A program made the position numbers and the translations under genes. A stretch of DNA of 64,000 nucleotides from Thermodesulfobacteriota bacterium. GTDB taxonomy: Bacteria > Desulfobacterota_D > UBA1144 > Nemesobacterales > UBA2774. Where the stretch lies: contig JBFMCV010000003.1 of the NCBI GenBank assembly GCA_040754335.1, forward strand, positions 47,356 through 111,355, in the 5' to 3' direction. Below the pieces are notes generated by a model. The model made no database searches. It was not told the DNA's origin and saw only the letters and a program-made list of their open reading frames with translations. Shown piece by piece: positions 11,189 to 30,919 of the stretch. Numbering within the stretch: position 1 is the stretch's first letter; every line of letters begins with the position of its first letter.

Positions 11189-13555
11189 TCAGGACTGGGC
11201 GAATTTGAAACTTCCCTTTCCGCTGTCCTCCGATACATCATAATAGTCATAGACGCTCCCGCTCTTCTTCCCGAATTCGAGCCTGTTTACAACCACGCCT
11301 ATGATTCTGGCCCCGACTTTGATGAGGTCTTCCATGCTGTTTCTGAGCCCTTCCCTGTCCACTATCCCGACGCTTGCGACAAGGAGGACGCTGTCAACCT
11401 GCCGGGACAGGAGCCGTGCGTCTGCAAGCTCCATGACAGGAATACCGTCGAGGATGACATTGTCATACTTCTTCACAAGATGGTCTATCAACTCCTTCAT
11501 CCTCTTCGAATCAATCAGGTCCGCTGGGTTCGGCATGATCGGTCCCGCCGGGATGATATCGAGGCCGTTTATGCCCGCGTTATAAATAATACTATCCATT
11601 CCCGAGCTGCCGTTCAGATATGAGCTTAATCCCGGTCCGCCGTTTAAGTCCTTGAGGAAGACTTTATGAATGCTTGGTCTCCTCAAGTCCGCGTCTACGA
11701 GTATTACCTTGAGTCCCGACTGGACCATTGTAAGCGCCAGGTTGGAGGATATGGTCGTTTTGCCCTCAAGAGGTTGAGTGCTCGTCACCATCAATGCTTT
11801 TGGCGGCCTGTGGTCGCGGAGGGAGTAAAGCACGGACGTTTTGAGAACTCTGAAGGCCTCCGATATTTTGGACTGGGGACTCGTATAAACTATCATTTCG
11901 AGCTGATCGAGATCACTCCGCCTCGCTCTTGGTATTTTGCCCATGAACGGTATGGACAGTCTCTTTTTGAGATCTTCCTCATCACGAATTGTCCTGTCGA
12001 AGTGCTCGAACCCGAATGCTACAAGAACACCCCCTACGAATCCCAAAATAGCGGCGACCAGTATGTTCAACAAAATGTTTGGCTTATACGGCTTGAGAGG
12101 GGGGAAAGCATAATCGATCACATGGACGTTGGTCGCCCTTATGCCAGAGGTGACTTCGGTTTCCTTCTGCCTCTGGAGGAGGTTCTGATAGATGGTCTTG
12201 TTGGTTTCGACTTCCTTCTCAAGCGCCTGATACTTGGCCCCTATCTCGTTCAATTCAGCTGCGCGCGTTTTCTGGATATCGGCTCTCTGCCTCAGCAGGT
12301 CTTCCTTCTTCTTCGCAGAGTCGTAGCCCCTCTCTATACTCCGCACGATTCCGCTGAGGAGCGCTCCCATTTCGTGCCGGAGACTCGCGACCTGAGCGCC
12401 CGCCTGCTTCATTTCAGGGTAGTTCGCCCCATACCTCGCATCCAGATTGTCATACTGCGTCTTTACCCTCACATAATCCTCCTTCATCTGCTGATACGCC
12501 GGATCTTTAACCACTTCGGGCAGGTACTCGGAATTTCCCCTCTTGGTCTCTTCGTATAATGCTTCCTGCGCGAGACGGTCGGTTTCCGCCTTTGCAAGTG
12601 CATCGTTCAGCTCGGCAAGCTGTTTGTAAGTCAGGTTAAGGTCTTTATCCAGGGAAACTATATCGTGCTCTTTTGCAAACCGGTTGAGCTCATCCTGGGT
12701 CTTTTCGAGCTTTTCCTTGACCTTCGCAAGCTGCGTGTTGAGAGATTCTCCGGCCGATTTCGTCAGGCTGAGTTTCTTTTCAAGCACCCATTCGATATAT
12801 GCGTCCGCAAGGGTATTTACGGCTTTGGCGGAAAGCCCAGGATCGTTGCTGTTGAAACTCACCTCGACCAGTCTGGATTCCCTGTCGGGCGTGACGTTCA
12901 CACGAGACAAAAATGCGTCCACTAATTTCTCCTGACGGGTAATGGCATTGCCATCACTTTGAAAATCTTGAGAGCCTTTCTCAGAACCGTTCCCCATGTG
13001 AATGTAATTCCCAATGTGAATATACTTTTCCGCCAGAACCTCTAATCTCTCTTTTAATGCAGTCGTATACTGCGCCGCATAGCTGATCAAAAAACCCGGC
13101 TTATCATAGTCCTGAGAAAATTCCGGATATGACTCCAGGTTCAATTTTTTGATAACGTCCGCGGCAAGGGATCTGCTTTGCAACAATTTATATTGCGTCT
13201 CATAAAACTCATCCTGCTGCTGGACGCTAACCTCATTGAGCTCCTCGAATCCGGTAACCTTGGGGTCTTCCGGCGCTATTTCGACCGTAGCCTTTGCTCT
13301 ATACACTTTGTCCATCGCCAGGGACGTTATACCGACGATGAGCACCGCGATAATCAGACACGCCAGTACGATTTTTTTTCTCCTCCCGATGACGTTCAGA
13401 TATTCGTTAAGAGTCGACCCTTCCTCCACATAGACTTCGTAATCGGCGTATTCCCCCTGTAACACGGAAGGGGATTGACCCCTCTTGACGTCCTCCAATT
13501 CGGCGCCCTCGTGTCTCGTTATTTGCCTGCCCCTTTTATCATGTAGCTGTTCCAT
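11189..13555 (-). CDS. wzc: Polysaccharide copolymerase / BY-tyrosine kinase (Wzc/GumC family)
   Basis: N-terminal Wzz-like region with 2 TM helices and coiled coils. C-terminal P-loop (TSTQPLEGKTTISSNLA), a VILVDADLRRP Walker A' motif and a C-terminal YDYYD tyrosine cluster. Confidence 0.8.
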   Translation of the reverse strand: MEQLHDKRGRQITRHEGAELEDVKRGQSPSVLQGEYADYEVYVEEGSTLNEYLNVIGRRKKIVLACLIIAVLIVGITSLAMDKVYRAKATVEIAPEDPKVTGFEELNEVSVQQQDEFYETQYKLLQSRSLAADVIKKLNLESYPEFSQDYDKPGFLISYAAQYTTALKERLEVLAEKYIHIGNYIHMGNGSEKGSQDFQSDGNAITRQEKLVDAFLSRVNVTPDRESRLVEVSFNSNDPGLSAKAVNTLADAYIEWVLEKKLSLTKSAGESLNTQLAKVKEKLEKTQDELNRFAKEHDIVSLDKDLNLTYKQLAELNDALAKAETDRLAQEALYEETKRGNSEYLPEVVKDPAYQQMKEDYVRVKTQYDNLDARYGANYPEMKQAGAQVASLRHEMGALLSGIVRSIERGYDSAKKKEDLLRQRADIQKTRAAELNEIGAKYQALEKEVETNKTIYQNLLQRQKETEVTSGIRATNVHVIDYAFPPLKPYKPNILLNILVAAILGFVGGVLVAFGFEHFDRTIRDEEDLKKRLSIPFMGKIPRARRSDLDQLEMIVYTSPQSKISEAFRVLKTSVLYSLRDHRPPKALMVTSTQPLEGKTTISSNLALTMVQSGLKVILVDADLRRPSIHKVFLKDLNGGPGLSSYLNGSSGMDSIIYNAGINGLDIIPAGPIMPNPADLIDSKRMKELIDHLVKKYDNVILDGIPVMELADARLLSRQVDSVLLVASVGIVDREGLRNSMEDLIKVGARIIGVVVNRLEFGKKSGSVYDYYDVSEDSGKGSFKFAQS

Positions 13556-13578
13556 GTTAAACCTCCTCTCCGATATCT

Positions 13579-14586
13579 CTAATTTCTCGGAGGGTTATAT
13601 CCCACGCCCCCGAGTCCCCATATATTGAACTGAAGACCGTAAAAGAATTTCTTTATCCCGCTCGCCCCTACAATGACTGCGTCTTTTTCGTTAAGAAGCG
13701 GGTCCTCCGCTCCACCCTCGTGAATGCTGTTTAAATCGACTTCCACGATCTCTTTTCGACCGCTATCCGTATGATGAATCAGCTTAATGTCGCTCTTGTC
13801 GGCATAGCTTGCAACTCCGCCTGCCATAACGATCGCTTCGCTAAGCGTTGTTTTTCCCTGATTGATAGGGTACGCTCCGGGTTTCGTCACAGCGCCCTCC
13901 ACAAAGACATTAGCCGCTTCGGGAACATAAACTAAATCACCGGGCTGGATATCGAGATCCATGTCGGCCCCGTTTCCCGACACCACTTTGTCGAGGTCCA
14001 CGAGATAAGAGCTCTTCCCGCCGTTATTATCCGCTCTCGTTACGAGAACAGTCGTACCTGCCTTATCGCTCAATCCCTCAGCCGACGCAAGTACGTCCAA
14101 GAGACTCTGCTTACCTAACAACTCGTAATTTCCTGGCTTGTTTACATAACCCATGACAGCCACAACCTTACTCTTGTGCTCCTTCACGAACACGCTGACA
14201 TGAGGATTGTCGATGTAGTCACCCGACCTCAAAAGGTTCTCGATCTTTACCTCTGCATCCCTCGCTGTGAGTCCGTCGACGTTGACGTTATTGAGAAGAG
14301 GGACCGTTATATCACCCCTCGAGCTCACCCGCACGGTGGTAGTCAGCTCCTTTGACTCGAACACATTGATCTCGAGTAGGTCCGCAGGACCGATAAGATA
14401 GTCGTCCGGTGACGTCGCTGCGGCAGGAAGCCCCTTGGATAGAAGCTTTGAGTTTACGTTTCCGATTTCTTCAGGAGGTCCTGCTTCTTCTTCGGATATA
14501 CTCGTGCTTCTGACGCTGCTCCCGCCCCCGCAACCTGCAGCAAAACTCGTGAGAAGAAATAAAATAAAGAGATATCTTTTAACCAT
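13579..14586 (-). CDS. wza: Polysaccharide export outer-membrane lipoprotein (Wza-like, Poly_export + SLBB)
   Basis: Lipoprotein signal (LLTSFAAGC). Poly_export motif (YLIGPADLLEINVF...GDITVPLL..V.V.GLT), followed by SLBB-like repeats. Confidence 0.75.
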   Translation of the reverse strand: MVKRYLFILFLLTSFAAGCGGGSSVRSTSISEEEAGPPEEIGNVNSKLLSKGLPAAATSPDDYLIGPADLLEINVFESKELTTTVRVSSRGDITVPLLNNVNVDGLTARDAEVKIENLLRSGDYIDNPHVSVFVKEHKSKVVAVMGYVNKPGNYELLGKQSLLDVLASAEGLSDKAGTTVLVTRADNNGGKSSYLVDLDKVVSGNGADMDLDIQPGDLVYVPEAANVFVEGAVTKPGAYPINQGKTTLSEAIVMAGGVASYADKSDIKLIHHTDSGRKEIVEVDLNSIHEGGAEDPLLNEKDAVIVGASGIKKFFYGLQFNIWGLGGVGYNPPRN

Positions 14587-14759
14587 GTTACCCTCCCCAT
14601 GGGCACGAAAGAACGATAATTCACCTTGGGATTAACTGCTTTTACGGCTGTCCGGAACGCGCGAACACGGGATTTGACACAGCTTCGCCACCTGACTCAC
14701 ATCCCTAAACTCACTACGCCGTTATCCGGGAACCGGTTTATTACAAAGCCGGCAAACAA

Positions 14760-15350
14760 TCAAACTAATTCAATATCAGCCGTGTTTATATCAACAGCCA
14801 CGGACCGCTTAATGATATCGATCGAAATAACGAGTCTTTTGTTCCCTTTCCCGGAAAGTACCTTTCCCGTAATTCCCGCGAGCGGGCCGTTTATGACTCT
14901 TACTTCTTTCCCCTCCTCAAAATACGGGTACGGATCGCTCTCCATTTTCGCTTCCAAGAATTTTCTGACAGAATCTATCTGATCATTCGGGACAGGCTGG
15001 AGCCTGCCGTTTGCGCTCAGTATTCTGACCACCCCTCGAGTGTTCAGAACTTGAAAAATCGCGAGTGAATCAAGCGGGTGGATTCGCACAAAAAGGTAGC
15101 CGGGGAAAAGCGGGAGCTGAATCCGTTTCTTCCTGTCTATCCACTGACTGACGACATCCCTCAGAGGGAGAAAAGTCTCGATCCCCCTTTTCTCAATAGA
15201 GCGGTTGACCGCCTTTTCATGCCTGACGTTGGTGTAAACCGCATACCATTCTTTGTGCTCATTGTGCGCGCCGATGTCGAAGTTACCGGACGAGAGGGTT
15301 CTCTCCTTGTGCACAGATTGCGTGATGTCAGTTTCGACGATTTTATTCAT
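14760..15350 (-). CDS. NusG-family transcription antiterminator paralog (RfaH/UpxY-like)
   Basis: NGN domain (WYAVYTNVRHEK...GIETFLPL) and a KOW-like C-terminus. The ATG overlaps the stop of the upstream receiver gene by 8 nt. Sits immediately upstream of the EPS operon. Confidence 0.65.
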   Translation of the reverse strand: MNKIVETDITQSVHKERTLSSGNFDIGAHNEHKEWYAVYTNVRHEKAVNRSIEKRGIETFLPLRDVVSQWIDRKKRIQLPLFPGYLFVRIHPLDSLAIFQVLNTRGVVRILSANGRLQPVPNDQIDSVRKFLEAKMESDPYPYFEEGKEVRVINGPLAGITGKVLSGKGNKRLVISIDIIKRSVAVDINTADIELV

Positions 15351-15774
15351 AATATTTCCGTCCCGATGCCGGTCTCAGAGCCCCAGGCGGGCCCTCTTGC
15401 GCCGATGAACCATGCTTCTTTGCCAGCCTGTTTATAATTCTTGCAACCTCATCGAATTCCGTGGATTTATCCAGGAAATAATCCGCTCCCTCATCTAAAC
15501 ATTTTTTTCTATACTGAGGGTATGGAAAGTTCGTGAGCATTATTATTTTCTGATCGGAACGACTATTCTTAAACTTTTTAAGAAGTTGTATTCCATTCCA
15601 CTCATCCATGCGTATGTCGAGTATTATGACGTTCGGTTTGAGGTTATTGTTTGCCAGAATCGCGCTTCGTCCGTCTTCAGCCTGCTCCACGATATCCACT
15701 CCGTCAATCGAATCAAGTAAACTTACCAACCTGTCACGCACAATCTTGGAATCATCCACTACTAAAACCTTCAT
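15343..15774 (-). CDS. Single-domain response regulator (CheY-like receiver)
   Basis: MKVLVVDDS...ILDIRMDEWNG...MLT receiver motifs. Confidence 0.75.
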   Translation of the reverse strand: MKVLVVDDSKIVRDRLVSLLDSIDGVDIVEQAEDGRSAILANNNLKPNVIILDIRMDEWNGIQLLKKFKNSRSDQKIIMLTNFPYPQYRKKCLDEGADYFLDKSTEFDEVARIINRLAKKHGSSAQEGPPGALRPASGRKYYE

Positions 15775-16050
15775 GATATTGTTATCCGAACAGTTTTGTA
15801 CTGAGCATAACGTATAGGCGTTAAATTAGAAATCAGGAAACTTCCCTAATTTATATAGGACTCTGGATAATAGTTTTGTAGGGATTTTCCTACAATTGCA
15901 TCAAGCAGAAAGACTGCAAAGGTTGAGCAGAGGAATTCTGCTAATTGATCATTTACTCTGACAAGAAGCGTATTAATTGAATTACATGCCGCAAATGTTT
16001 CAGAATGTCGGAGTAAATGCCGGAAGGTTACATTGCAAAATACGCCTGAG

Positions 16051-16680
16051 CTAAACGAGGGCGTGCCTGATGGAATAATTTATGAGCTCGGCGTTCGTTT
16101 TCATGTTCATTTTCTGTAGTATGCGCGTGCGGTATGTGCTCACAGTCTTTTCGCTTAAAAATAGCTCATTCGATATCTCTTTTATCGTCTTACCCATCGC
16201 AATCATGCACAACACCTGGAACTCGCGGTTCGAGAGGGCCTCATCTGGCGTCGAAGAGGAATTATCATCCAAATCTTGAGCCAACTTTTCAGCGAGAGAC
16301 GGACTCACGTACTTGCCCCCGGCGACAACCTTCCTCACAGCTCTCACGAGCTCTTCGGGGGCGCTGTCTTTGGTCATATAACCTGCAGCACCGGCTTTAA
16401 GAACTCTTACGGCATACAAGCTTTCCGGGTAAATGCTTATTATAAGCACGTTCATTCCGGCATGTTCCCTCTTTAACTGCTCCAGAAGATCGAGCCCGTT
16501 CCTATCGGGAAGCGATATATCGAGCAGTATCACATCAAACTTCGTATTGCGGATTAACTCCAGGGCCTCTCTCGCTGTTCTCGCTTCGTCATAAACAGAG
16601 ATATCGGATTCGTTCTCAAGAATAAATTTCAGCCCCATCCTTACTACAGGGTGGTCATCAGCAATAAGCACCTTAATCAT
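16051..16680 (-). CDS. NarL/FixJ-family response regulator (receiver + LuxR HTH)
   Basis: IADDHPVVR...LLDISLPDRNG receiver, plus a LuxR-type HTH (LSNREFQVL...KTVSTYRTRILQKM). Confidence 0.85.
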   Translation of the reverse strand: MIKVLIADDHPVVRMGLKFILENESDISVYDEARTAREALELIRNTKFDVILLDISLPDRNGLDLLEQLKREHAGMNVLIISIYPESLYAVRVLKAGAAGYMTKDSAPEELVRAVRKVVAGGKYVSPSLAEKLAQDLDDNSSSTPDEALSNREFQVLCMIAMGKTIKEISNELFLSEKTVSTYRTRILQKMNMKTNAELINYSIRHALV

Positions 16681-17482
16681 TCGTTTTCCTCCTACTCGGA
16701 ATGAAGATTGACACCTTGGTCCCCTTCCCGCTCTTGCCTACTATATCTACGTCTCCTCCGAATAAAAGAGCCCTTTCCCTGATACCTAGAAGTCCCAAGG
16801 ACTGGGGAGCGGAAATATCCACCGTTGAAATACCCTTTCCGTTATCTATGACTTCAAGCTTGTACTTGTTACGGTATTGTTTTAACTTAACCTTGACCGT
16901 CGTCGCCCCAGAATGTCGCGCTACATTCGTCAGAGTTTCCTGAAAAATCCGGAATACGGCGGTAGCGTACTCCCTTTCGAGCTCCATGCATTCAAGCTCG
17001 GAGACGAAAATACACTTAATTCCCGTCAGCTTCTCGAAGTCCTGCGCCTGCCATTCGATGGCTCCGATTGTCCCGAGGTCATCGAGTATGCCGGGCCTCA
17101 GCTCCATCGCAATCCTGCGGACCGATTGAATGTTCGAGTCTATAAGCGCTGACATTTTCCTGATTATTTCGTTCAGCGGCTCCGTCAGGGTCTTGTCAAA
17201 TTTCTCATCGAGCCGAGCTTTCAACAAACCCAGGTCTATTTTAAGCGCCGTTAGCGACTGGCCGAGCTCATCATGAACCTCACGCGATATTTTTGTCCTC
17301 TCTTCTTCGCGTACGGACTCAAGGTGCTTAGTCAGAGCACGTAGCTGTTTATAAGAATTTTTGAGCTCTCTTTCTTTGAACCTTCTCTTGGTGATCTCTT
17401 TTCTCAGAGTTTCGTTAGTCTCTTCGAGCTCCGCATTCCTATTATCGACATGCGTGTCAGACTTTGAATTTATCCCTTTCAC
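16673..17482 (-). CDS. Cytoplasmic sensor histidine kinase (HisKA_3 + HATPase_c, NarX/DegS-like), no TM segment
   Basis: N-terminal coiled coil. H-box REVHDELGQSLTALK. C-terminal ATPase motifs (NVARHS..., DNGKGI, GLLGIRERA). Overlaps the RR gene start by 8 nt. Confidence 0.8.
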   Translation of the reverse strand: MKGINSKSDTHVDNRNAELEETNETLRKEITKRRFKERELKNSYKQLRALTKHLESVREEERTKISREVHDELGQSLTALKIDLGLLKARLDEKFDKTLTEPLNEIIRKMSALIDSNIQSVRRIAMELRPGILDDLGTIGAIEWQAQDFEKLTGIKCIFVSELECMELEREYATAVFRIFQETLTNVARHSGATTVKVKLKQYRNKYKLEVIDNGKGISTVDISAPQSLGLLGIRERALLFGGDVDIVGKSGKGTKVSIFIPSRRKTND

Positions 17483-18326: not shown

Positions 18327-19076
18327 TCAAATATCAATTTCCATCAAATCTTCAGCTAGAATAACATCCACATCCACATACTTCCTGACCTGGCTGATAA
18401 TATCTATTTCATCACAATCGGAATAAAGGTGTGTCAGAATAATTTTTTTGGCGCCTGAAGCTCTTCCTATCTTTCCGACTTCAGTAGGGGTAAGATGGGC
18501 ATGAAATTTAAGTTCGTCCGGAAAAGAACATTCGATAACTAACAAATCCGCTTCCCTAGCGAGCTCAATTAATTTTTCTGTATATCCAGTATCCCCGGAA
18601 TATACTAATGATTTCCCATTGGACTCTATTCTGTACGCAATGCTGTTCTCGGTATGAAATGTATCGCTCGCTACAAGAACAAAATCTTCGAGCGTTACCG
18701 GTTCCTCATTTATTTCTTTTACGGTTAGCAAGTCCGGAGCAATCCAGTCGTGGTAAGCTGACTTTAGAGATGTGTATAAATCAATGAAACCTCTTGGGCC
18801 CCATATTTCAAGTGGTTTTTCGCGGAATTTTTTTGGGTGAGGATATTTTGTAGCAAATAAAAATGGGATTAAATCCGCAGTATGATCGGGATGAAAGTGG
18901 GTTATGAATATATGGTCCACTTTCAGATAATCCACGCCGACCATGCCTAATTTCCATGTAGTGCCATTTCCGCAATCAAGTAAAACAGTTGATTTTGCAA
19001 GCTCCAGTGCGTAGCCTGATGAGCCTCTTCTAATGTTGGGGACACAAGTTCCGGAACCTAATATATGTAGTTTCAT
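18327..19076 (-). CDS. MBL-fold metallo-hydrolase (RNase Z/ElaC-like short form)
   Basis: HFHPDH metal-binding motif (HxHxDH) with a later D and H. The gene is conspicuously AT-rich compared with its neighbours. Confidence 0.6.
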   Translation of the reverse strand: MKLHILGSGTCVPNIRRGSSGYALELAKSTVLLDCGNGTTWKLGMVGVDYLKVDHIFITHFHPDHTADLIPFLFATKYPHPKKFREKPLEIWGPRGFIDLYTSLKSAYHDWIAPDLLTVKEINEEPVTLEDFVLVASDTFHTENSIAYRIESNGKSLVYSGDTGYTEKLIELAREADLLVIECSFPDELKFHAHLTPTEVGKIGRASGAKKIILTHLYSDCDEIDIISQVRKYVDVDVILAEDLMEIDI

Positions 19077-19674: not shown

Positions 19675-21564
19675 ATGCCGACAGAACATACGGCGCAAAG
19701 AAAAAGCGCCGAGGATTGTCAACGAGTTAAATCTCCGATACAGGCATATCTAGAGCGGCTTCACGCAAAGTGCTCAAAGCTGCAAGATGGACAGATCGCT
19801 ACCTATATCCCCGAGCTATCCAAGGCGGACCCGAACTGGTTCGGCATCTGCATTGCAACCACAGACGGTCGGGTCTATGAAGTCGGCGATACGCGTCAGC
19901 CATTTACGATACAGTCGATCTCCAAACCGTTCGTATACGGCATAGCTCTTGAGGACAGAGGCATCAATACGGTGCTCGGAAAGATAGGTGTTGAGCCTAC
20001 AGGCGACGCTTTTAACTCGATCAGCCTGGCTCCCGAATCCGGCTGTCCGTTCAACCCTATGATCAATGCCGGCGCAATCGCCGCGACATCCCTTGTGGTT
20101 GGCGATTCCAGCGATGACAAGATGCAGCGCATTTTGAGAGTTTTCTCGACCTACGCTGGACGCGAGCTTTCCATTGATACAACTGTCTACAAATCGGAAA
20201 AAGAGACGGGCCATCGCAATCGAGCGATTGGTCATATGCTGCGCAACTTTAATATACTGAACGAGGATCCCGATATAGCCCTCGACCTCTACTTTCAGCA
20301 GTGCTCAATTTCAGTCGATGCTCGGGATCTTAGCCTTATGGCGGCCACTCTGGCGAACGGCGGGGTTAATCCGCTGACGAAGGATCGAGCAATAAGTGAT
20401 GAGTTCCTCGAAAACCTTATGACCATCATGACAACTTGCGGAATGTACGACTACGCCGGCGAGTGGATGTATTGGATCGGCATACCCGCCAAGAGCGGTG
20501 TCGCAGGGGGAATTATGGCGGTTATGCCAGGTCAGGCCGGGATCGGAGTATTTTCGCCGCCTCTAGATGCACGGGGGAATAGTGTCCGCGGGATCGAGGT
20601 TTGCAAGAACCTTTCGAGGGATTTTAACCTCCACTGCCTTCGCGTTCCGCGCTCCTCACGATCTGCCATCCGGGCTCAGTACGATATCTCCAAGATTAGA
20701 TCCAAACGGCTCCGCGGTGAGCGTGATTCGGAGATTCTCGATAAATCGGGCACCCGGGCAAAAGTTTATGAGCTGCAGGGGGACCTTGTTTTTTCGACCG
20801 TCGAAGTAACTGTCCGCAGGATTGTCGATGCAAGCGATACCCTGGATATCGCCGTCATCGATTTCAAGCGAGTCACAAATATAGAGGACTCGTCCGCCCA
20901 GATACTGCTCGAATTAATCAGGACTTTGGGAGTTAACGGAAAATTCCTTTTATTAGCGAGCTTACAGCAGAGACACTCGAAGTTCATAAGATTCCTGCAA
21001 GAACAGCTTACGAACGACGATCAAGAGAGAACCTGGCTACGCATATTTCCCGATATGGATATCGCAATAGAATGGTGCGAAAACCGTTTGATTGCAGGTC
21101 AACGCCTCGATGACGGCTCTCATGAGGTGAAGCTGGCGGAGCATGACCTCTGCCGCGGACTTACGACGGAAGCCGTAGCGTTCTTGGAAACTATACTTAA
21201 GAGAAGGCGTTATGAACCCGGAGAGCTCATAGTTCGAAAGGACGATCCGGCTGATGAAATCTACTTGCTCATGAGCGGTGAAGTGAGCGTCAGGATCGAC
21301 CTTCCCAACGGCCAAATCAAACGGCTTTCGACCCTTTCTCCCGGTATGGCGTTCGGCGAAATTGCCGTCATAAACCGCTCCGTGCGATCAGCAGACGTCC
21401 ACGCTGATAAACACGTAGAGTGCTATCTACTGTCAACGGCCGCATTCGAGGAGCTTGGCGAGACAAATCCCATGATCAAAATGACGCTTCTCCAAAATCT
21501 GTTACGCAATTTCTCTCGGATGCTTACTATGGTTGAGCGGGAAGTCACTACGCTCGCTTGGTGA
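19675..21564 (+). CDS. glsA: Glutaminase A fused to STAS and cyclic-nucleotide-binding (CAP-family) domains
   Basis: Glutaminase motifs (KPFVYGIALE, NPMINAGAI, SGVAGGI). STAS-like region (YELQGDLVFSTVE...). C-terminal cNMP domain with FGEIAV...RSADV (the PBC RSA motif). RBS AAAGGGGG upstream. Confidence 0.75.
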   Translation: MPTEHTAQRKSAEDCQRVKSPIQAYLERLHAKCSKLQDGQIATYIPELSKADPNWFGICIATTDGRVYEVGDTRQPFTIQSISKPFVYGIALEDRGINTVLGKIGVEPTGDAFNSISLAPESGCPFNPMINAGAIAATSLVVGDSSDDKMQRILRVFSTYAGRELSIDTTVYKSEKETGHRNRAIGHMLRNFNILNEDPDIALDLYFQQCSISVDARDLSLMAATLANGGVNPLTKDRAISDEFLENLMTIMTTCGMYDYAGEWMYWIGIPAKSGVAGGIMAVMPGQAGIGVFSPPLDARGNSVRGIEVCKNLSRDFNLHCLRVPRSSRSAIRAQYDISKIRSKRLRGERDSEILDKSGTRAKVYELQGDLVFSTVEVTVRRIVDASDTLDIAVIDFKRVTNIEDSSAQILLELIRTLGVNGKFLLLASLQQRHSKFIRFLQEQLTNDDQERTWLRIFPDMDIAIEWCENRLIAGQRLDDGSHEVKLAEHDLCRGLTTEAVAFLETILKRRRYEPGELIVRKDDPADEIYLLMSGEVSVRIDLPNGQIKRLSTLSPGMAFGEIAVINRSVRSADVHADKHVECYLLSTAAFEELGETNPMIKMTLLQNLLRNFSRMLTMVEREVTTLAW

Positions 21565-21645: not shown

Positions 21646-24600
21646 ATGAAGAGTAGGCGTTCCCATATCCTGTGTTTTGTTATGGGTACAAGTTTTTTGT
21701 ACGCATATTTGTATTCCCATGCCACTTTCGCGGAAACATGTGAAAAACCGGTTGCAAAAGTGGTCTCAGTTCAAGGAACCGTAGAGGCACAAAGGGCGGG
21801 CGAAACGCAGTGGCAAGAAGTAAAATTAAACGACACATACTGCCCGGGAGACAAGATCCGGGTGCAGGAGAAAAGCCGTGCCGACGTAACGCTCCTCGAG
21901 AAGTCGGTAATCCGTCTAAATCAAAATACCACGATAACGCTCGAAAATGTGAAGGAAGAACGGACGAGTGTTATAGACATGATCAAGGGAGCCGCTCATT
22001 TCTTCAGCAGTGGTCCAGACAGCCTTGAGGTACATACACCGTATACGACTGCAGGTGTCAGGGGAACGGAATTTCTCGTAAGCATTGAAGACGATAAGAC
22101 CTTGTTGTCGACATTCGAAGGTACAGTCGTGGCATCGAACGATGCCGGCAGCCTGACGCTTACCGGCGGCCAGTCAGCAATTGCCGAGGCGGGGAAGCCC
22201 CCGGTGCTCAGTATCGTGGCGCGTCCTCGAGATGCCGTACAATGGACACTCTACTATCCGCCCGTCCTTTATCTCAGTCCCGATGAATTTCAATCCGGGC
22301 CGGGCTGGGAAGGCATGGTTCGTAAATCCATCGAGCTTTACATAAGCGGGGATATTCAGGGAGCCTTCGACAGTATTAAGGATGTGCCTGAGGATGTCCG
22401 CGATCCGCGTTTTTTTACCTATCGGGCCTCACTGCTCTTGGCGGTGGGCCAGGTTAATGAAGCAGATGCCGATATCGAGCGCGCGCTGAGGCTCGACCCC
22501 AAATATAGCGACGCCTTCGCGCTTGAAACAATTATCTATATTGTAGAGAACGAAAAAGACAAAGCCCTTGATGCCGCAGAAAAAGCCGTGGAAACGAATC
22601 CCGACTCCGCCACGGCAGAGATCGCCCTTTCTTATGCACAGCAGGCAATGTTTGACCTGAAAGGCGCTCGAACAAGCCTTGAAAAGGCGGTGCAGCTTGA
22701 TCCTCAAAACGCGCTTGCGTGGGCACGGTTAGCAGAGATCTGGGCGTCATTCGGCGATCTAGGCAAAGCGCTCAATGCGGCACAGGAGGCCGTAGTCCTT
22801 GAGCCGAATCTCTCGAGGACGCAGACAGTTCTCGGCTTCGCATATCTGACCCAGGTCGATACAAAACAGGCAAAGGATGCATTTGAAAAAGCGATCGCCC
22901 TTGACCAGGCCGATTATCTCCCGAGGTTGGGCCTTGGTCTGGCGAAGATCCGGGATGGCGATCTGCACGGCGGCGGGAGGGAGATTGAGATTGCAGCAAG
23001 CCTGGATCCAAACAACTCAATTGTCCGCAGCTATCTGGGCAAGACCTACTTTGAAGAGAAACGCACCAAGCTGGATGTGCGCGAGTACGAAACCGCTAAA
23101 CAACTGGACCCCCTGGACCCGACACCATGGTTCTATGACGCGATAGCGAAACAAACGACGAATAGGCCGGTTGAGGCTCTCCAAAACATGCAAAAATCCA
23201 TTGAGTTAAACAACAACAGAGCTGTTTACAGATCGCGTCTGCTGCTCGACTCGGACCTGGCCGCACGCAGTGCCGGCCTGGCACGTATCTATACAGATCT
23301 CAGCTTCCAGCAGCTTGCCCTCGTTGAGGGATGGAAATCCGTTAACATTGACCCCTCGAGCTTTTCCGCACACCGGTTCCTGGCTGACTCATATGCTGTT
23401 TTACCCCGACACGAAATCGCCAGGGTGAGCGAGCTGCTGCAGTCACAGCTGCTTCAGCCCATCAACATCACGCCGATTCAGCCCCGGCTCGCGGAGAGTA
23501 ATCTATTTCTGATCTCCTCCCAAGGACCAGGCTCTGTCTCCTTCGATGAGTTCAACCCGCTTTTCAACCGCAACCAGGTAACCCTTCTGACGAGCGGCCT
23601 GGTTGCCGAAAATGAGACATGGGCCGGAGAAGGCGTTGTCTCGGCCATATATAATAAGGCCAGCTTCAGCGGGGGTTACTCATACTTCGGCACGGACGGG
23701 TTTAGAGAAAACGACGATCAGAAGGATCAGATCGCAACCGCCTATCTCCAATTGGAGCTCACTTACAAAACAAGCATTCAGGCTGAGTACCGCTATAGAA
23801 ACACAGAACTGGGAGACCTGGCACTCAGATTCTTTCCGGATGACTTCCTCCCAGGCTTGAGAAACAAGCAGGAAAGAAACTACTTCAGGGTCGGTGGACG
23901 GCACGCATTTTCCCCGGGTTCGGTCCTCATCGGCAACTTTACATATCAAAATGCAGATTTTAATTTGACGGACAAGCTTAGTTCCTTTGACGCGAAAAGA
24001 CCGGAAGACGCCTATAGCGCCGAGGCCCAACACCTGTTCCGTTCTCAATACATAAATCTCGTTAGCGGCGCGGGCTACTTCGATGTAAACGGAAGGATCG
24101 ATACGACTATAACGATTGATATTCCCCCGCCCGACGGGCCAATAATTGCTCAATCCACAACAAGTACGGACCTCCAGCACCTTAATATGTACATATACTC
24201 ATACTTGAACCCCATGAACAATGTGACGTTCACCCTTGGGGCAAGTGCCGACTTCCTGAGCGGCGACAGTCCCGATGTCGGGGATAAAGACAAGTTCAAT
24301 CCGAAATTCGGTATAACCTGGAATCCGATCCCGTCTACGACTTTACGCGCTGCGGCGTTCAGGGTGTTAAAGAGAACGCTGATTACGGACCAGACCCTGG
24401 AGCCGACCCAGGTCGCCGGCTTCAACCAATTTTTCGATGACGTCAACGGAACTGAATCATGGGTATTCGGCGGGGCTATCGATCAGAAATTCCCGAAGGA
24501 TTTCTTCGGTGGCGTACAATTTACAAAGAGGGATCTGGAAGTTCCGTTCCTGGATTTTACAGCCGATCCAGAAAATCCTCCGGTCCGGAATGAGGACGTC

Positions 24601-25035
24601 GACGAATATCTGGGTCTAGCCTACCTCTTCTGGGCTCCGCATCCATGGCTCGCGTTAAGAGCACAGTATTTATTCGAACGATTTGAGACTCAGGGTTTGA
24701 CCGACCAGCCGAAAGAGCTGACTACAAATCGTGTCCCCCTCGGGGTCAACTTCTTCCACCCTTCCGGATTGGGCTCTAATGTGACAGTGACTTACCTTAA
24801 TCAGGACGGGGATTTTCTGTCGCCGGACGGTGACGGATTTGTGTCAGGCGAAGATAACTTCTGGATCGTCGATGCAGCGGTCTATTACCGTCTGCCGAAA
24901 CGGTACGGTTTCATCACGGTAGGAGCGACGAATCTCTTTGACCAAGAGTTCAATTATTTTGAGGTAGACGTCGATAATCCGCGCATACAGCCTGGAAGGG
25001 TGTTCTATGCACGGGTTACACTGGCGCTTCCATAA
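21646..25035 (+). CDS. Large secreted protein with N-terminal FecR domain, TPR repeats and a C-terminal region resembling an outer-membrane beta-barrel
   Basis: Signal peptide. FecR-like segment (TVEAQRAGETQWQEV...AGVRGTEFLV). At least 6 TPR-like repeats (AFALETIIY..., ALSYAQQAM..., AWARLAEIW...). The C-terminal ~600 aa has alternating hydrophobic/polar beta-strand character with aromatic-rich ends. Confidence 0.55.
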   Translation: MKSRRSHILCFVMGTSFLYAYLYSHATFAETCEKPVAKVVSVQGTVEAQRAGETQWQEVKLNDTYCPGDKIRVQEKSRADVTLLEKSVIRLNQNTTITLENVKEERTSVIDMIKGAAHFFSSGPDSLEVHTPYTTAGVRGTEFLVSIEDDKTLLSTFEGTVVASNDAGSLTLTGGQSAIAEAGKPPVLSIVARPRDAVQWTLYYPPVLYLSPDEFQSGPGWEGMVRKSIELYISGDIQGAFDSIKDVPEDVRDPRFFTYRASLLLAVGQVNEADADIERALRLDPKYSDAFALETIIYIVENEKDKALDAAEKAVETNPDSATAEIALSYAQQAMFDLKGARTSLEKAVQLDPQNALAWARLAEIWASFGDLGKALNAAQEAVVLEPNLSRTQTVLGFAYLTQVDTKQAKDAFEKAIALDQADYLPRLGLGLAKIRDGDLHGGGREIEIAASLDPNNSIVRSYLGKTYFEEKRTKLDVREYETAKQLDPLDPTPWFYDAIAKQTTNRPVEALQNMQKSIELNNNRAVYRSRLLLDSDLAARSAGLARIYTDLSFQQLALVEGWKSVNIDPSSFSAHRFLADSYAVLPRHEIARVSELLQSQLLQPINITPIQPRLAESNLFLISSQGPGSVSFDEFNPLFNRNQVTLLTSGLVAENETWAGEGVVSAIYNKASFSGGYSYFGTDGFRENDDQKDQIATAYLQLELTYKTSIQAEYRYRNTELGDLALRFFPDDFLPGLRNKQERNYFRVGGRHAFSPGSVLIGNFTYQNADFNLTDKLSSFDAKRPEDAYSAEAQHLFRSQYINLVSGAGYFDVNGRIDTTITIDIPPPDGPIIAQSTTSTDLQHLNMYIYSYLNPMNNVTFTLGASADFLSGDSPDVGDKDKFNPKFGITWNPIPSTTLRAAAFRVLKRTLITDQTLEPTQVAGFNQFFDDVNGTESWVFGGAIDQKFPKDFFGGVQFTKRDLEVPFLDFTADPENPPVRNEDVDEYLGLAYLFWAPHPWLALRAQYLFERFETQGLTDQPKELTTNRVPLGVNFFHPSGLGSNVTVTYLNQDGDFLSPDGDGFVSGEDNFWIVDAAVYYRLPKRYGFITVGATNLFDQEFNYFEVDVDNPRIQPGRVFYARVTLALP

Positions 25036-25112
25036 TCGGAACAAATGAGCAAAGGCGGGGCGATTTTGTCAATGAGATGCAGAAAGGTAAAACACATAAG
25101 GAGGTTGTAATC

Positions 25113-25832
25113 ATGTTGGAGAGATTAACGCTGATTTGCCTGTTAGGTATGGTTCTCTTCCCGGTATTTGGGACTGTAGCCAGTGCGGCGACATGTCCTT
25201 CAGGTTATACGTATAAATGTCCGATCATTGGGGGGACAAAATGCTGCGCGTGCTGGAAGACGGGGAGCGAAATTTGTGACGCTGAAGTCACCGGATTGGG
25301 CAACATTAAAAACTGCGTCCCCGGTGTGAATTGCCCGGTCGTGACATGTTCTGTCTACGGTACAGTAGATTTAGGAGACGGATCGTGCGACCCCAATACA
25401 TTAGACCCTGACTGTGGCATCCAGGGCATCGCATATTGTGTAAACCCGGCAGGTAATTCTTCACAATCCCAGGGAAATCCATTTACTCTAGAGACGGTAC
25501 TTACTGGTGTAGCTGATATCGAGAAATGCGACAAGAATGGCAAATGTCAGAGGTCAGTCGAGGTCAATCCGGAGGATTGCCCGGACTGCTGCATAAATCC
25601 AAATTGGCAATTCAAAACTTTTACGGCCACACAATTCAACGGAGAGGTTTGCGTATGCCCCGGCGGGTACTCAACTGGAGGAGTTTGTTGCGCAGATATT
25701 GCACGACAACTTGACGGCAGTTGTGCGACAGCGGGCGATGAAGTCTGCCTCGCACAGCAATGTACTGCTGATTTGACAGGATACAAACCTGGGAGGAGCA
25801 TACCGTATAATTGCACCGACCTGCCGCAATAA
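25113..25832 (+). CDS. Secreted cysteine-rich protein (about 34 Cys in about 215 mature residues), hypothetical
   Basis: ATG at 25113 preceded by a perfect AAGGAGG. Signal peptide LICLLGMVLFPVFGTVASAA. Many CC, CxC and CxxC motifs. Confidence 0.6.
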   Translation: MLERLTLICLLGMVLFPVFGTVASAATCPSGYTYKCPIIGGTKCCACWKTGSEICDAEVTGLGNIKNCVPGVNCPVVTCSVYGTVDLGDGSCDPNTLDPDCGIQGIAYCVNPAGNSSQSQGNPFTLETVLTGVADIEKCDKNGKCQRSVEVNPEDCPDCCINPNWQFKTFTATQFNGEVCVCPGGYSTGGVCCADIARQLDGSCATAGDEVCLAQQCTADLTGYKPGRSIPYNCTDLPQ

Positions 25833-25948
25833 GTCGTGGCAGCGTGACACTGTGAGTCGATGCAGTTTGAGCATATACGGATTCCGTCGAGTATAGTCCG
25901 CGTAACAGATTCAGACCGCGGGTAACTTCTCTATCGACGGGTGTGCCT

Positions 25949-28219
25949 ATGAGATTATCTCTTAAACCCCTTTTCTCGATCAATCCTGTTTCTCTGACTC
26001 TAGGCACAATCCTGGTTGTTATAGTGCTCTTCCTGGCAAGAATAACGATCCTCGACCTTATCGAATTGAAAACTTACGACCTCCGATTTCTAACTCGCGG
26101 GCAGTTACCATCCTCCCCGGCGGTCGTTATAGCAGCCATAGACGAAAAAAGCCTAGATAGCGAAGGGCGCTGGCCCTGGCCCAGGTCCAAGATCGCCGCT
26201 CTCGTGGATATCCTTTCTCAAGACGGAGCCAAAGTGATCGGTTTTGACATCGGTTTCCTGGAGGCGGATGAGAACTCACAGCTTGCGTTGATCAATCAAT
26301 TTAGTCAGAAAGTAGATGCTCAATATGGTAAAAACTCACGGCTGGCCAGCTTCATACAAGAAAGCAAAAAGCGAGCCGACAACGACACGGCCCTGGCCGA
26401 AGCCATAAAAAAATCGTCCGCGGAAGTAGTTCTTGGATACTTCTTTCATATGAGTGAAGCCGACCTTGATTATAGTATCGAACAGAGCGAGATGGACAAA
26501 CAGCTTGAACGCATCAGTGATTCAAAATACCCTTTCGTACTTTACGAAGAACAGGGAACAGATTCCGTGCCCTTTATTAAAGCCTATGCGCCCGAGAGCA
26601 ATCTCGAAATTATCACCGAAGCGGCAGCCTCTTCGGGCTACTTCACCATGCGAAGTGATCAGGACGGTGTCCTCCGCTGGATGCCGCTCACTATACAGTA
26701 TGGCGAGGATTTGTTTCCTCCTCTGGCGGTCTTGTGTGCCTGGCAGTACCTGGGCAAACCTCAACTGATGGTTAAGGTCGGGCGATACGGAGTGGAAGAG
26801 ATACAGATGGGAGATCGTTTCATACCGACTGATGAAAGCGGTCAACTGCTCATTAATTACCTAGGCCCTCCAAAAACCTTTCCTCATCACTCTGCCAGCG
26901 ATATTCTGAGCGGCAAGTTCACTAAGGGAACTTTTAAAGATAAAATCGTGCTTGTTGGGGCCACAGCCACTGGCATCTATGATCTGAGGAACACACCCTT
27001 CAGCCCCTCATATCCCGGTGTGGAGGTTCATGCCAGTGTCATCGACAACATATTGACACAAAATTTCATCTCGAAGCCCAGATGGTCGAGGATTTACGAC
27101 CTGCTCGCCATAATTATTCTGGGAGTTCTCATCGGGATCGCCATACCGCGTATGAGTGCACTTAAAGGGTTTTTGTTTGTCGCCGGACTGATCATCTTAT
27201 ACATCTCCGTGGTACTGTGGCTCTTCGTCAGAGCCGGAGTGTGGCTCAATATCGTCTATCCCCTGCTGACGCTATCAATGAGTTATATGGTCCTTACCGT
27301 TTATTATTATGCTACGGAAGAGCGGGAACGTAAGAAAATAAAAAAGGCATTCACTCATTATGTAGCACCCGTGGTAATCGAAGCCATGCTGAAGGACCCG
27401 TCCCAGTTAAAACTGGGGGGAGATGAGAAGGTTCTGACAGTCTTGTTCAGCGACCTTCAGGGATTTACTTCCGCATCTGAGCGTTATGCCCCTCATGAGA
27501 TGATCGTGATTCTGAGCGAATACTATGCCCGGATGACAGAACAGGTATTCGCACATCAGGGGATGCTGAAAGAATACGTGGGTGACGAGATGATGGCTAT
27601 TTTTGGCGCCCCTATTGATCAGAACGACCATGCGGAAAGAGCGTGCGCCGCAGCCCTGGCCATGCGGGATAATCGAAATACGCTGAACGAAGAGTGGGCC
27701 GAGATTGGACGCCCGCCCCTGATCGCCAGGACAGGGATCAACTCGGGCCGCATGCTTGTAGGGAATCTGGGATCCAAATATCGTTTTGCTTACGGCGTTC
27801 TAGGGGACCATGTGAACCTGGGCTCCCGTCTTGAGGGTCTAAACAAGGGTTACGGTACTGAAATCCTCATCGGTGAGAACACAGCACAGCTTGTCGGCGA
27901 TAAGTTTCTCCTGCGGGAAGTCGACATGGTGCAGGTGGTCGGCAGGGTACAGCCCGTGCGTATATATGAGCTCCTGGCCGCACACGGCACGCCACTGCAT
28001 CATGAGCAGGAGAAAGCATTCGGTTTCTATGCTGCAGGGCTGGAAGCGTATCGAGAACGGCAATGGAACGAAGCTCTTGGTATATTCAACAAATGCCTGG
28101 GGCTATGTCCCGATGACGGTCCATCACGAACAATGGCGGAGCGTTGTCAAATCTACCGGAAGACACCGCCCCCTGAAGAGTGGGACGGTGTTTTTGAAGC
28201 GATCCACAAATTCAAGTGA
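25949..28219 (+). CDS. CHASE2-sensor class III adenylate/guanylate cyclase with C-terminal TPR-like region
   Basis: N-terminal TM helix, a periplasmic CHASE2-like domain (about 330 aa), 3 TM helices, then a CYCc domain (VLFSDLQGFTSASE...VGDEMMAIFGAP...GINSGRMLVGNLGS...YGVLGDHVNLGSRLE). Confidence 0.8.
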   Translation: MRLSLKPLFSINPVSLTLGTILVVIVLFLARITILDLIELKTYDLRFLTRGQLPSSPAVVIAAIDEKSLDSEGRWPWPRSKIAALVDILSQDGAKVIGFDIGFLEADENSQLALINQFSQKVDAQYGKNSRLASFIQESKKRADNDTALAEAIKKSSAEVVLGYFFHMSEADLDYSIEQSEMDKQLERISDSKYPFVLYEEQGTDSVPFIKAYAPESNLEIITEAAASSGYFTMRSDQDGVLRWMPLTIQYGEDLFPPLAVLCAWQYLGKPQLMVKVGRYGVEEIQMGDRFIPTDESGQLLINYLGPPKTFPHHSASDILSGKFTKGTFKDKIVLVGATATGIYDLRNTPFSPSYPGVEVHASVIDNILTQNFISKPRWSRIYDLLAIIILGVLIGIAIPRMSALKGFLFVAGLIILYISVVLWLFVRAGVWLNIVYPLLTLSMSYMVLTVYYYATEERERKKIKKAFTHYVAPVVIEAMLKDPSQLKLGGDEKVLTVLFSDLQGFTSASERYAPHEMIVILSEYYARMTEQVFAHQGMLKEYVGDEMMAIFGAPIDQNDHAERACAAALAMRDNRNTLNEEWAEIGRPPLIARTGINSGRMLVGNLGSKYRFAYGVLGDHVNLGSRLEGLNKGYGTEILIGENTAQLVGDKFLLREVDMVQVVGRVQPVRIYELLAAHGTPLHHEQEKAFGFYAAGLEAYRERQWNEALGIFNKCLGLCPDDGPSRTMAERCQIYRKTPPPEEWDGVFEAIHKFK

Positions 28220-28452: not shown

Positions 28453-28538
28453 TGGCGGAGGGCGAGGGATTCGAACCCCCAAGTCCTTGCGGACGCCGGT
28501 TTTCAAGACCGGTGCATTAGCCGTTCTGCCAGCCCTCC
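28453..28538 (-). tRNA. tRNA-Ser (anticodon UGA), type II with long variable arm, CCA encoded
   Basis: Reverse complement: GGAGGGCTGGCAGAACGGCTAATGCACCGGTCTTGAAAACCGGCGTCCGCAAGGACTTGGGGGTTCGAATCCCTCGCCCTCCGCCA. 7-bp acceptor stem, G73 discriminator, anticodon stem CCGGT/ACCGG with loop CTTGAAA, T-loop GGTTCGAATCC. Confidence 0.85.
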
Positions 28539-29967: not shown

Positions 29968-30246
29968 TTAAAAGAGATCGAACTCGAACTCTATTAAATC
30001 ATCGTCGTAATCGTCATCATAGTAGTAGTATCTGACGTCATCGTCGGGATCGACATAATAGTAGTATTTGTCTTCATCATAATCGGCGCGATCAACAAAA
30101 TTAACGCTGGTATCCGGCTGCTCGTAAACATAACGGTGCTCCACTACGCGTCCGGACTGTATAATATAATAATCGTCAGCAAAACTATTAACAGCGGCGC
30201 CAAAAATTAACGAACCCAATAATGTCAATGTCACAATGAGTTTTTT
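29968..30246 (-). CDS. Small secreted Tyr/Asp-rich protein (paralog 1)
   Basis: Start at MKKLIV with AGGAGGTG upstream, then a signal peptide. C-terminal DKYYYYVDPDDDVRYYYYDDDYDDD. Confidence 0.6.
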   Translation of the reverse strand, partial: KKLIVTLTLLGSLIFGAAVNSFADDYYIIQSGRVVEHRYVYEQPDTSVNFVDRADYDEDKYYYYVDPDDDVRYYYYDDDYDDDLIEFEFDLF

Positions 30247-30320
30247 CATTTCATTCACCTCCTGGTAAAAATCGACAACAGCCTCATTCATTCGAGTTCA
30301 ATCAAACGGGCGTCGCCGGT

Positions 30321-30611
30321 TTAATCGTCATAATAGTAAAAGTATCTGACATCGCCATCAGGCTCGACGATGTAGCGGTATTCGATGTCGTCGTCAGGGG
30401 CAACGTAACGGTAGTATTTGACCTCATAATCATCGGGATCTATATAATAAACGTTCCGCTCCCGTTCTATATATACGGGCGGGTCATTTACGTAACGATG
30501 CTGCACGTATCCCGGCGGCACGATGTAATAATAGTCGTCGGCCAAGCTAATGGACGCAGCGCCTATAATAAAAACGCTTAACATCATTAAAGTTACTATG
30601 AATTTTCTCAT
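30321..30611 (-). CDS. Small secreted Tyr/Asp-rich protein (paralog 2)
   Basis: Start at MRKFIV with the identical upstream context GGAGGTGAATGAAATGA. Signal peptide; DDYYYIVPPGY...RYFYYYDD. Confidence 0.6.
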   Translation of the reverse strand: MRKFIVTLMMLSVFIIGAASISLADDYYYIVPPGYVQHRYVNDPPVYIERERNVYYIDPDDYEVKYYRYVAPDDDIEYRYIVEPDGDVRYFYYYDD

Positions 30612-30919
30612 TTCATTCACCTCCTGTGAAAATTCAACGATTTAATGTCAAACAACACATATAGGGGGGCAAAGACCATGCCATGCAGCTAAAAATATTC
30701 ACAATATGCAGTGATTCCGGGGAATTTGTAATCCTATCGGCTTTACATCAGGATTACGAATGCAGGTTCATTGTCCGATCTCATACACAATTTATTGTAG
30801 GCGAAGGTACTGAATGATTTATTTATTTCTCCAACAAAGAGATGAGAAAATTTGCCATTTCCCATCCGCCTTACACCCTATAATGGAAGGCGTAATAATC
30901 CTCACGAGACCGAAGCGCA

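Follow-up and report, generated by a model that had tools for sequence, protein, structure and literature searches.

We describe here a new family of secreted, disulfide-knotted proteins that forms the third component of signalling modules composed of an NsrA-type receptor and a CHASE2 sensor, often with DsbA as a fourth, in several uncultured lineages. The member considered in most detail is encoded in a 64,000-nucleotide (nt) stretch of the genome of a Thermodesulfobacteriota bacterium (GCA_040754335.1, contig JBFMCV010000003.1, positions 47,356 to 111,355), the whole of which we refer to as the window. Its gene starts 77 nt after the end of a FecR-domain receptor gene and ends 110 nt before a CHASE2 cyclase gene, with all three on the + strand, which is the position that a first-pass annotation of this DNA had given it. 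We favour, at a probability of roughly 45%, a reading in which the cysteine-rich protein is a dedicated accessory subunit of the receptor's outer-membrane barrel (a lid, a plug or a ligand-capturing co-receptor) that would be locked by roughly twelve structural disulfides, and the state of which would be relayed through the receptor's TPR region to its FecR domain, and from there to CHASE2 and cyclic AMP (cAMP). The principal features are as follows.

25098..25104, + strand: Shine-Dalgarno sequence AAGGAGG, 8 nt 5' of the ATG, as read from the sequence
25113..25832, + strand: gene encoding the secreted cysteine-rich protein, with an ATG start and 239 codons before the stop
25113..25187, + strand: signal peptide, residues 1-25, with a predicted signal peptidase I cut after A23-S24-A25
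21646..25035, + strand: NsrA-type outer-membrane receptor, 1129 residues
25943..28219, + strand: CHASE2 sensor-class III adenylate/guanylate cyclase, 758 residues (Pfam CHASE2 3e-66, Guanylate_cyc 1e-21); translation may in fact begin at the ATG at 25949, and the periplasmic region falls between a first transmembrane helix at about residues 21-40 and a membrane-spanning block from about residue 395

The open reading frame at 25113..25832 is a real gene, as the first-pass annotation supposed, with 46 homologues and with pairwise ratios of nonsynonymous to synonymous substitution (dN/dS) of 0.08-0.28 relative to its relatives, where dS could be estimated; these values reflect purifying selection and show that the frame is translated and constrained. 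The perfect Shine-Dalgarno sequence that had been noted is present, and the N-terminus has the three regions of a signal peptide that had been recognised there, with a charged MLER segment, an 18-residue hydrophobic core (LTLICLLGMVLFPVFGTV) and then ASA, followed by A at the predicted cut. An upstream ATG at 25077 proposed by the gene finder was discarded as the start, as the homologues begin at the MLER/MFKR position. Among 148 family members the alanine at -3 is kept in 80% and that at -1 in 97%, and this conservation of the AxA motif argues for signal peptidase I rather than a lipobox; the possibility of a lipoprotein was rejected, since the -3 position of the would-be lipobox is polar family-wide and the AxA rule fits. 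The mature protein of ~22 kDa has an isoelectric point (pI) of 4.2 and a net charge of about -12, and the whole family is acidic with a median pI of 4.4. There is only one copy of the family within the window, and promoter-like and terminator-like sites in the 19-29 kb interval are no commoner than in shuffled sequence and are uninformative as to operon structure.

The 46 homologues were found in a search of 5.8 billion proteins, with E-values down to 5.6e-138 and identities from 84% to 28%, and all are either 'hypothetical' or without a name and lack Pfam domains. When 1.84 billion cluster representatives, with clusters defined at 50% identity, were searched with a profile, the family grew to at least 137 clusters (137 at E <= 0.001, of which 84 reach E <= 1e-10 and 36 reach E <= 1e-30). 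Stand-alone proteins of 200-300 residues with a similar signal peptide make up almost the whole family, and the ten long members checked contain no Pfam domains and offer no fusion clue to function. The window protein has no match in Pfam or NCBIfam at E <= 0.1 and the family profile matches no PDB sequence, such that the earlier statement that no family could be recognised is correct for these three databases. The conserved core comprises G41, C45, G51-S52, G83, C109, C139, C145, C160, F170, F175, C217, Y232, and C234, and the recurrent motifs are CxCW-x-TGSEIC, CPVVTCSVFGT, LDPDCGI-x-GIAFC, CINPNW, and FTA-xx-F. The family is carried by metagenome-assembled genomes (MAGs) labelled Dadabacteria/Thermodesulfobacteriota, Acidobacteriota, Binatia, and Entotheonellia.

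The association with the receptor and CHASE2 genes is preserved across these relatives. Seven homologues with identities of 64%-36% are on contigs that all place the gene directly after a FecR-TPR-barrel gene, as do the loci from a genome collection (labelled Dadabacteria, Vicinamibacteria, and others), and at 27 metagenome loci identified by way of a distant 'CASWITGSE' clade the receptor precedes the cysteine-rich protein wherever the flank suffices; in total, about two dozen non-redundant loci have the gene immediately 3' of the FecR-TPR-barrel gene and on the same strand. Every contig with adequate flank has the homologue beside a FecR-TPR-barrel gene, a CHASE2 gene, or both, with about eight short contigs being uninformative. 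The placement of the CHASE2 gene is variable, and it may be downstream as in the window or upstream (L006, L023, and L029), whereas at L004 and L018 it is on the opposite strand and its output domain is a Ser/Thr kinase in place of the cyclase. At L036-L045 the barrel gene is followed by the CHASE2 cyclase gene, and the cysteine-rich and DsbA genes converge from the other strand. Because a Ser/Thr kinase can replace the cyclase, the conserved core consists of the receptor, the cysteine-rich protein, and CHASE2. Tandem paralogues of the cysteine-rich gene are present at L007, L012, and L023. The first-pass annotation had proposed a functional tie to the sensor/cyclase pair, which homologues that never lie near signalling genes were to count against, and the opposite is seen, with linkage in all adequately flanked contigs and a neighbourhood that is kept despite changes in gene order, strand, and output domain. 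That the conservation extends over several phylum-level lineages makes it very improbable that the protein is a bystander of the envelope that travels with the operon and has no part in signalling, even though the NsrA-CyaK system of Sinorhizobium meliloti, discussed below, does without it.

Sampling from the receptor side added three loci. L048 (Binatia) has a diverged family member of 191 residues in the slot between the receptor and CHASE2 genes (E = 1.2e-19), and L047 (an Entotheonellia MAG) has another at 9359-10021 (hmmsearch E = 1.6e-14) that was not called as a gene, the collection listing just genes of 64 and 51 residues there. At L049 (GCA_900174565.1, 9545-10345) the slot, which lies between the NsrA-like gene and that for the CHASE2 cyclase, encodes a 266-residue signal-peptide protein with 10 cysteines that has no detectable relation to the family (hhalign probability 0.4). 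These loci indicate that the slot is usually filled and that sequence searches probably miss part of the family.

The number of cysteines is 26 in total, of which 25 are beyond the signal peptide, rather than the approximately 34 previously stated, and the CC, CxC, and CxxC motifs noted at that time occur three, two, and two times respectively. Even so, cysteine accounts for 10.9% of residues, compared with a mean of 0.62% and a maximum of 1.75% in the 21 other long open reading frames of the window, and a random sequence of the same base composition would have 7.6 cysteine codons in 239 (P of 26 or more = 6e-8; at the rate of the neighbouring genes, 5e-24). An AlphaFold2 model built with a 47-sequence alignment is all-beta, with a mean predicted local distance difference test score (pLDDT) of 85.2 and a predicted TM-score of 0.79, and consists of two halves, each rich in strands, that meet near residues 110-120; residues 1-23 have a pLDDT below 50. 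A Foldseek search of this model against the PDB, the database against which the novelty of the fold is judged, gave no match at E <= 0.001, and no TM-score reached 0.3. Disulfides were deduced from the co-occurrence of cysteines (phi) across 148 family members, and are listed here with the parts of the model to which they belong.

25194..25448, + strand: N-terminal lobe, residues 28-112, with the signature C45-x2-W48-x-T-G-S-E-I-C55 and beta strands at pLDDT 87-96; putative disulfides 55-79 (phi 0.85), 68-74 (phi 0.61), and 92-101 (phi 0.88)
25440..25478, + strand: variable exposed inter-lobe loop, residues about 110-122, where pLDDT dips to 77; an insertion hot spot
25470..25829, + strand: C-terminal lobe, residues 120-239, with motifs C160-I-N-P-N-W, F170-T-A-x2-F175, and Y232-x-C234; putative disulfides 139-145 (phi 0.86), 156-159 (phi 0.85), 180-212 (phi 0.89), 217-234 (phi 0.59, both cysteines nearly invariant), and two within the four-cysteine group 182, 192, 193, and 204
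Cysteines 109 and 160 (phi 0.77): putative pair that would staple the two lobes together

The remaining N-terminal group (cysteines 28, 36, 44, 45, and 47) leaves one cysteine without a partner. At 14 or more loci a gene encoding a fusion of SurA_N and DsbA/thioredoxin domains is directly 3' of the cysteine-rich gene (for example L006 8288-9367, L008 4957-6060, L023 5661-6803 and 8051-9076, and L045 7553-8686), and the pair of cysteine-rich and DsbA genes is duplicated at L023. These neighbours support oxidative folding in the periplasm, and together with the paired gain and loss of cysteines they favour structural disulfides, in keeping with the heavily disulfide-bonded extracytoplasmic protein originally envisaged.

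The same cysteines could be taken to suggest that the protein is a periplasmic thiol-disulfide or metal sensor, the cysteine state of which is read by the CHASE2 cyclase, and the CC, CxC, and CxxC motifs, the odd number of cysteines in the mature protein, the dedicated DsbA-like gene at many loci, and the His-rich loops flanked by cysteines in some homologues would all be compatible with this. We consider it quite unlikely, however, because the cysteines change in pairs (phi up to 0.89) while their number varies between about 10 and 34 among family members, which is a structural pattern and not that of a conserved switch or metal cluster. The cysteines of the CC, CxC, and CxxC motifs are mostly ill-conserved, and C44 (15%), C47 (26%, part of the CAC sequence at 45-47), C156 (36%), and C159 (32%) are among the least conserved of all, with the CPDC sequence at 156-159 kept by only about one member in three. 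The protein has no match to thioredoxin-family or metallothionein profiles in Pfam, and the all-beta model is a beta-sandwich rather than the fold of a thiol-disulfide oxidoreductase. These patterns point to cysteines that serve as structural disulfides and not for metal binding or as a redox switch, and of the roles raised in the first-pass annotation it is the co-receptor or accessory subunit that is favoured, and the redox or metal sensor that is disfavoured.

The junction between the lobes is the most plastic part of the protein, with inserts of 40-112 residues in 22 of the 148 homologues. Six of these have Pro/Thr-rich spacers of 56-112 residues there and Cys109 is lost in all six, and P0124 has a Gly/Ser/Thr-rich insert of about 220 residues. 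Eight homologues (P0090, P0096, P0101, P0103, P0106, P0113, P0116, and P0151) have a His/Gly/Asp-rich insert enclosed by an extra cysteine pair, as in CRHHFNGVGTGHxxHEDDC, and this could be a metal-binding loop specific to a sub-clade. The coding sequence also evolves rapidly, with dN two to four times that of the neighbouring genes; relative to L001, dN is 0.18 against 0.056-0.095 for the neighbours, and dN/dS is 0.28 against 0.07-0.10. Fast nonsynonymous change, an insertion hot spot, tandem paralogues, and uniform acidity are features typical of exposed binding proteins, and would suit the cysteine-rich protein to such a role.

The partner that we favour is the receptor. The first-pass annotation referred to this simply as a FecR protein, and although the FecR domain is present (5e-18), the 1129-residue product is in fact a FecR-TPR-barrel receptor of the NsrA type, with the following parts.

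21754-22215, + strand: FecR domain, about residues 37-190 (Pfam FecR 5e-18; a beta domain in the AlphaFold2 model)
22234-23454, + strand: TPR solenoid, residues 197-603 (many TPR Pfam matches)
Residues 604-644: low-confidence linker in the AlphaFold2 model
23578-25032, + strand: C-terminal barrel of about 22 strands, residues 645-1129 (AlphaFold2 model)

A tblastn search of the receptor against plasmids matches the annotated nsrA of S. meliloti pSymB, and BLASTP alignment of the two proteins gives 24% identity over 527 residues (E = 1e-18, and E = 2e-7 for the barrel); NsrA (1200 residues) has the same pattern of FecR and TPR Pfam matches. The receptor family is very large, with at least 5958 proteins at E <= 1e-30. 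The receptor model has a mean pLDDT of 74 with the barrel mostly at 80-94, and the C-terminus has weak matches to beta-barrel profiles; the barrel, at about 22 strands, resembles that of a TonB-dependent transporter (TBDT). There is no Plug or STN match in Pfam at E <= 0.1, and what precedes the barrel is the TPR helices and the linker. Neither the barrel nor the CHASE2 region matches any PDB sequence. The window receptor is thus of the NsrA type, with a barrel that is predicted to be plug-less. In what would be the most specific version of our reading, the cysteine-rich protein is the separately encoded plug or lid of this plug-less TBDT-type barrel, and signalling starts with its ligand-driven movement, which the FecR arm then relays to CHASE2, a version that we regard as rather unlikely.

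The relationships between components were compared by partial Mantel tests on distances, in which the receptor's own TPR region served as the control and high-scoring segment pairs were joined. The distances of the cysteine-rich protein correlate with those of the barrel (r = 0.42, p about 0.004, 14 loci), and not with those of the FecR domain (r = -0.11, p = 0.71, 14 loci) or the CHASE2 periplasmic domain (r = 0.07, p = 0.35, 7 loci), whereas FecR and the CHASE2 periplasmic domain are strongly correlated with each other (r = 0.92, p about 0.001, 7 loci). The divergence of FecR tracks that of CHASE2 (21754-22215 and 25943-27352 in the window) far more closely than do the TPR or barrel parts, which suggests that FecR contacts CHASE2 directly, and the first correlation, that the cysteine-rich protein goes with the barrel; we take both as no more than pointers.

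These correlations bear on an alternative in which the cysteine-rich protein is a soluble periplasmic adaptor that binds CHASE2, or bridges the FecR/TPR arm to it, and modulates the cyclase, in the manner of the periplasmic accessory proteins that modulate sensor kinases. Such an adaptor would require no more than the Sec signal peptide, a CHASE2 gene is present at every locus with enough flank, and the six spacer-containing homologues without Cys109 would fit lobes that dock on two distant partners. But we find this unlikely, since the cysteine-rich protein shows no excess covariation with CHASE2 or FecR, the strong FecR-CHASE2 covariation suggests a contact made without an adaptor, and adjacency is closest to the barrel gene.

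A different interpretation of the covariation with the barrel is that the protein is a self-made signal, either an autocrine or kin cue sensed by the NsrA-like receptor or a tethered decoy ligand. What NsrA senses in S. meliloti is itself a protein, ribosomal protein uL2 (PMC7529298), and fast divergence, paralogue duplication, and barrel covariation are all expected of a co-evolving ligand-receptor pair; the dense disulfide cross-linking would also suit extracellular life. It is nonetheless a reading to which we give a low probability, as the conserved block contains no export system for a folded 22-kDa protein, and a ligand that is constitutively co-transcribed with its receptor would be uninformative unless its export or release were regulated. 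Moreover, the signal proposed for S. meliloti is a basic protein that reportedly binds receptor loops of acidic character (PMC7529298), and the cysteine-rich protein is strongly acidic.

The pathway that we favour for the accessory subunit would run as follows. The cysteine-rich protein would be exported by Sec and oxidatively folded in the periplasm, a task probably performed in many relatives by the dedicated SurA_N-DsbA protein, and would then join the plug-less barrel as a lid, lumen plug, or co-receptor, and so set what is sensed. Occupancy would be passed through the TPR arm to the periplasmic FecR domain, which would touch the CHASE2 domain of the inner-membrane cyclase. The resulting rise in cAMP would act on a glutaminase with a cyclic nucleotide monophosphate (cNMP)-binding domain encoded upstream of the receptor, and a metallo-beta-lactamase-fold protein encoded nearby may hydrolyse the cAMP. 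We infer that the protein binds the barrel, and likewise the direction in which the signal travels and the final site of the protein, whether periplasm, barrel lumen, or cell surface.

Several observations weigh against this view. The acidic two-lobed beta-sandwich protein carries only a Sec signal peptide and no route to the outer membrane is evident, and the lumen might instead be occupied by parts of the receptor itself, namely the long loops at 908-937 and 1096-1118 or the linker at 604-644. The S. meliloti NsrA-CyaK system has no such gene, and so NsrA-type signalling does not generally depend on the cysteine-rich protein, which would be a lineage-specific addition rather than a universal requirement. 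The SurA_N-DsbA gene is absent from the window and from its closest relatives. The Mantel tests involve few loci and non-independent pairs and are too liberal given shared ancestry, and it is mainly the two kinase-type loci (L004 and L018) that carry the FecR-CHASE2 result.

The closest characterised relative of the module is that of S. meliloti. In published work, NsrA is described as an outer membrane protein with a barrel at residues 600-1200, and sensing of the protein signal uL2 is said to need it genetically, at a point upstream of the CHASE2 cyclases CyaK and CyaD1/D2 (PMC7529298, PMC13001267). A rise in cAMP that depends on the receptor and follows an external signal is known for S. 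meliloti only (PMC7529298). As in the window, the gene for the FecR-TPR-barrel receptor adjoins one encoding CHASE2 and a class III cyclase, and the output is cAMP, which is predicted likewise for the window cyclase. There are two differences, in that pSymB nsrA overlaps cyaK with no gene between, whereas the window and dozens of loci from uncultured lineages insert the cysteine-rich gene, and the S. meliloti effector is the transcription factor Clr, whereas that in the window appears to be the cNMP-binding glutaminase.

Other outer-membrane systems offer partial parallels. In both FecA-FecR-FecI and HasR-HasA-HasS-HasI, as is proposed for the window, an outer-membrane barrel of about 22 strands signals to a periplasmic FecR-type domain, and in the has operon the gene that follows that of the receptor encodes a small secreted protein, the hemophore HasA, which binds the barrel and sets off signalling. 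However, the window receptor has neither a plug nor an STN domain, its FecR domain is the N-terminal part of the outer-membrane barrel protein rather than an inner-membrane anti-sigma factor, and no protein with sigma-70 r2/r4 regions is encoded in the conserved block, such that the extracytoplasmic function (ECF) sigma/anti-sigma pair of the FecA-FecR-FecI type is lacking. The cysteine-rich protein also differs from HasA in having a Sec signal peptide, and there is no similarity of fold. In SusC-SusD, RagA-RagB, BtuB-BtuG, and XusA-XusB the partners are lipoproteins of unrelated folds and the barrels are plugged and import nutrients, whereas the window module has a partner of the signal peptidase I type, a plug-less barrel, and a second-messenger output; the cysteine-rich protein is not a surface lipoprotein and has no SusD-, BtuG-, or HasA-like fold. 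We therefore view HasA-HasR, SusD-SusC, and BtuG-BtuB as the nearest functional analogies, with membership of these groups failing on the plug, lipoprotein status, and fold.

Two further arrangements combine FecR and CHASE2. A Burkholderia biofilm operon encodes a response regulator, a LysM-FecR protein, a CHASE2 histidine kinase, and a DUF4136 protein (PMC5192318), and so resembles the window in having a periplasmic FecR protein, a CHASE2 sensor, and a small exported protein; its FecR protein has LysM rather than TPR and a barrel, its output is through a histidine kinase, and the cysteine-rich protein has no DUF4136 match. A Campylobacterota cluster with a CHASE2 cyclase, a phosphodiesterase, a FecR-domain protein of the outer membrane, and a protein with TPR (PMC9239204) is a similar functional set, but FecR and TPR are in separate genes and no cysteine-rich component is described.

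The frame of NsrA and a CHASE2 cyclase is thus already known, as are FecR proteins beside CHASE2 sensors in Campylobacterota and Burkholderia (PMC9239204, PMC5192318). In the literature that we searched on CHASE2 and related clusters, the cysteine-rich component, its family, and the pairing with SurA_N-DsbA are not described, nor is the plug-less TBDT-like nature of the NsrA-type receptor barrel. The S. meliloti pathway from NsrA to CyaK/CyaD is the only dissected CHASE2 pathway in the literature that we found, and a gap in understanding separates its outer-membrane event from the cyclase. CHASE2 is among the commonest of bacterial extracytoplasmic sensor domains. Its signals are still described as unknown (PMC5192318), and a small, stable, and separately encoded third component would provide a soluble handle on its activation. 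If the plug or lid version is correct, it would define for the first time how a CHASE2 sensor is activated, and would represent a new construction of an outer-membrane receptor from a barrel and a detachable, fast-evolving specificity subunit. If instead the cysteine-rich protein is a lineage-specific stabiliser, what is gained is a useful annotation and little more.

The genes surrounding the module include one whose product may respond to cAMP, one whose product may degrade it, and a tRNA gene.

19675..21564, + strand: glutaminase-STAS-cNMP-binding fusion (Pfam), first gene of the same-strand block
18327..19076, - strand: metallo-beta-lactamase-fold protein (Pfam Lactamase_B_2 2e-19; a weak sub-threshold Apyc1-like match)
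28453-28538, - strand: tRNA-Ser, anticodon TGA, right after the CHASE2 cyclase gene, where synteny with relatives ends

The position of the fusion gene is conserved in close relatives, and its product is the probable cAMP effector of the CHASE2 cyclase, as judged from its domains. The metallo-beta-lactamase-fold gene is divergent from the module and is also conserved in close relatives, and could encode a cyclic-nucleotide phosphodiesterase that resets the signal. A search of Rfam for RNA genes identified a tRNA only.

Further to the left, the segment at 11189-17482 (- strand) contains exopolysaccharide export genes (Wzz/GNVR tyrosine-kinase-type and Poly_export/SLBB), together with a NusG-like gene, a HisKA_3 kinase, and a LuxR-type response regulator. 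To the right, two tandem genes at 29968-30291 and 30321-30620 (both - strand) encode small proteins with signal-peptide-like N-termini and C-terminal halves that are extremely rich in Tyr and Asp, with runs of YYY and DDD, and neither has a Pfam match. In the 2.8-Mb relative L001, genes for a subtilisin-like Peptidase_S8 protein and a PatG-domain protein (1-1724) are a few kb upstream of the module, and hint at a cyanobactin-like peptide-maturation cluster.

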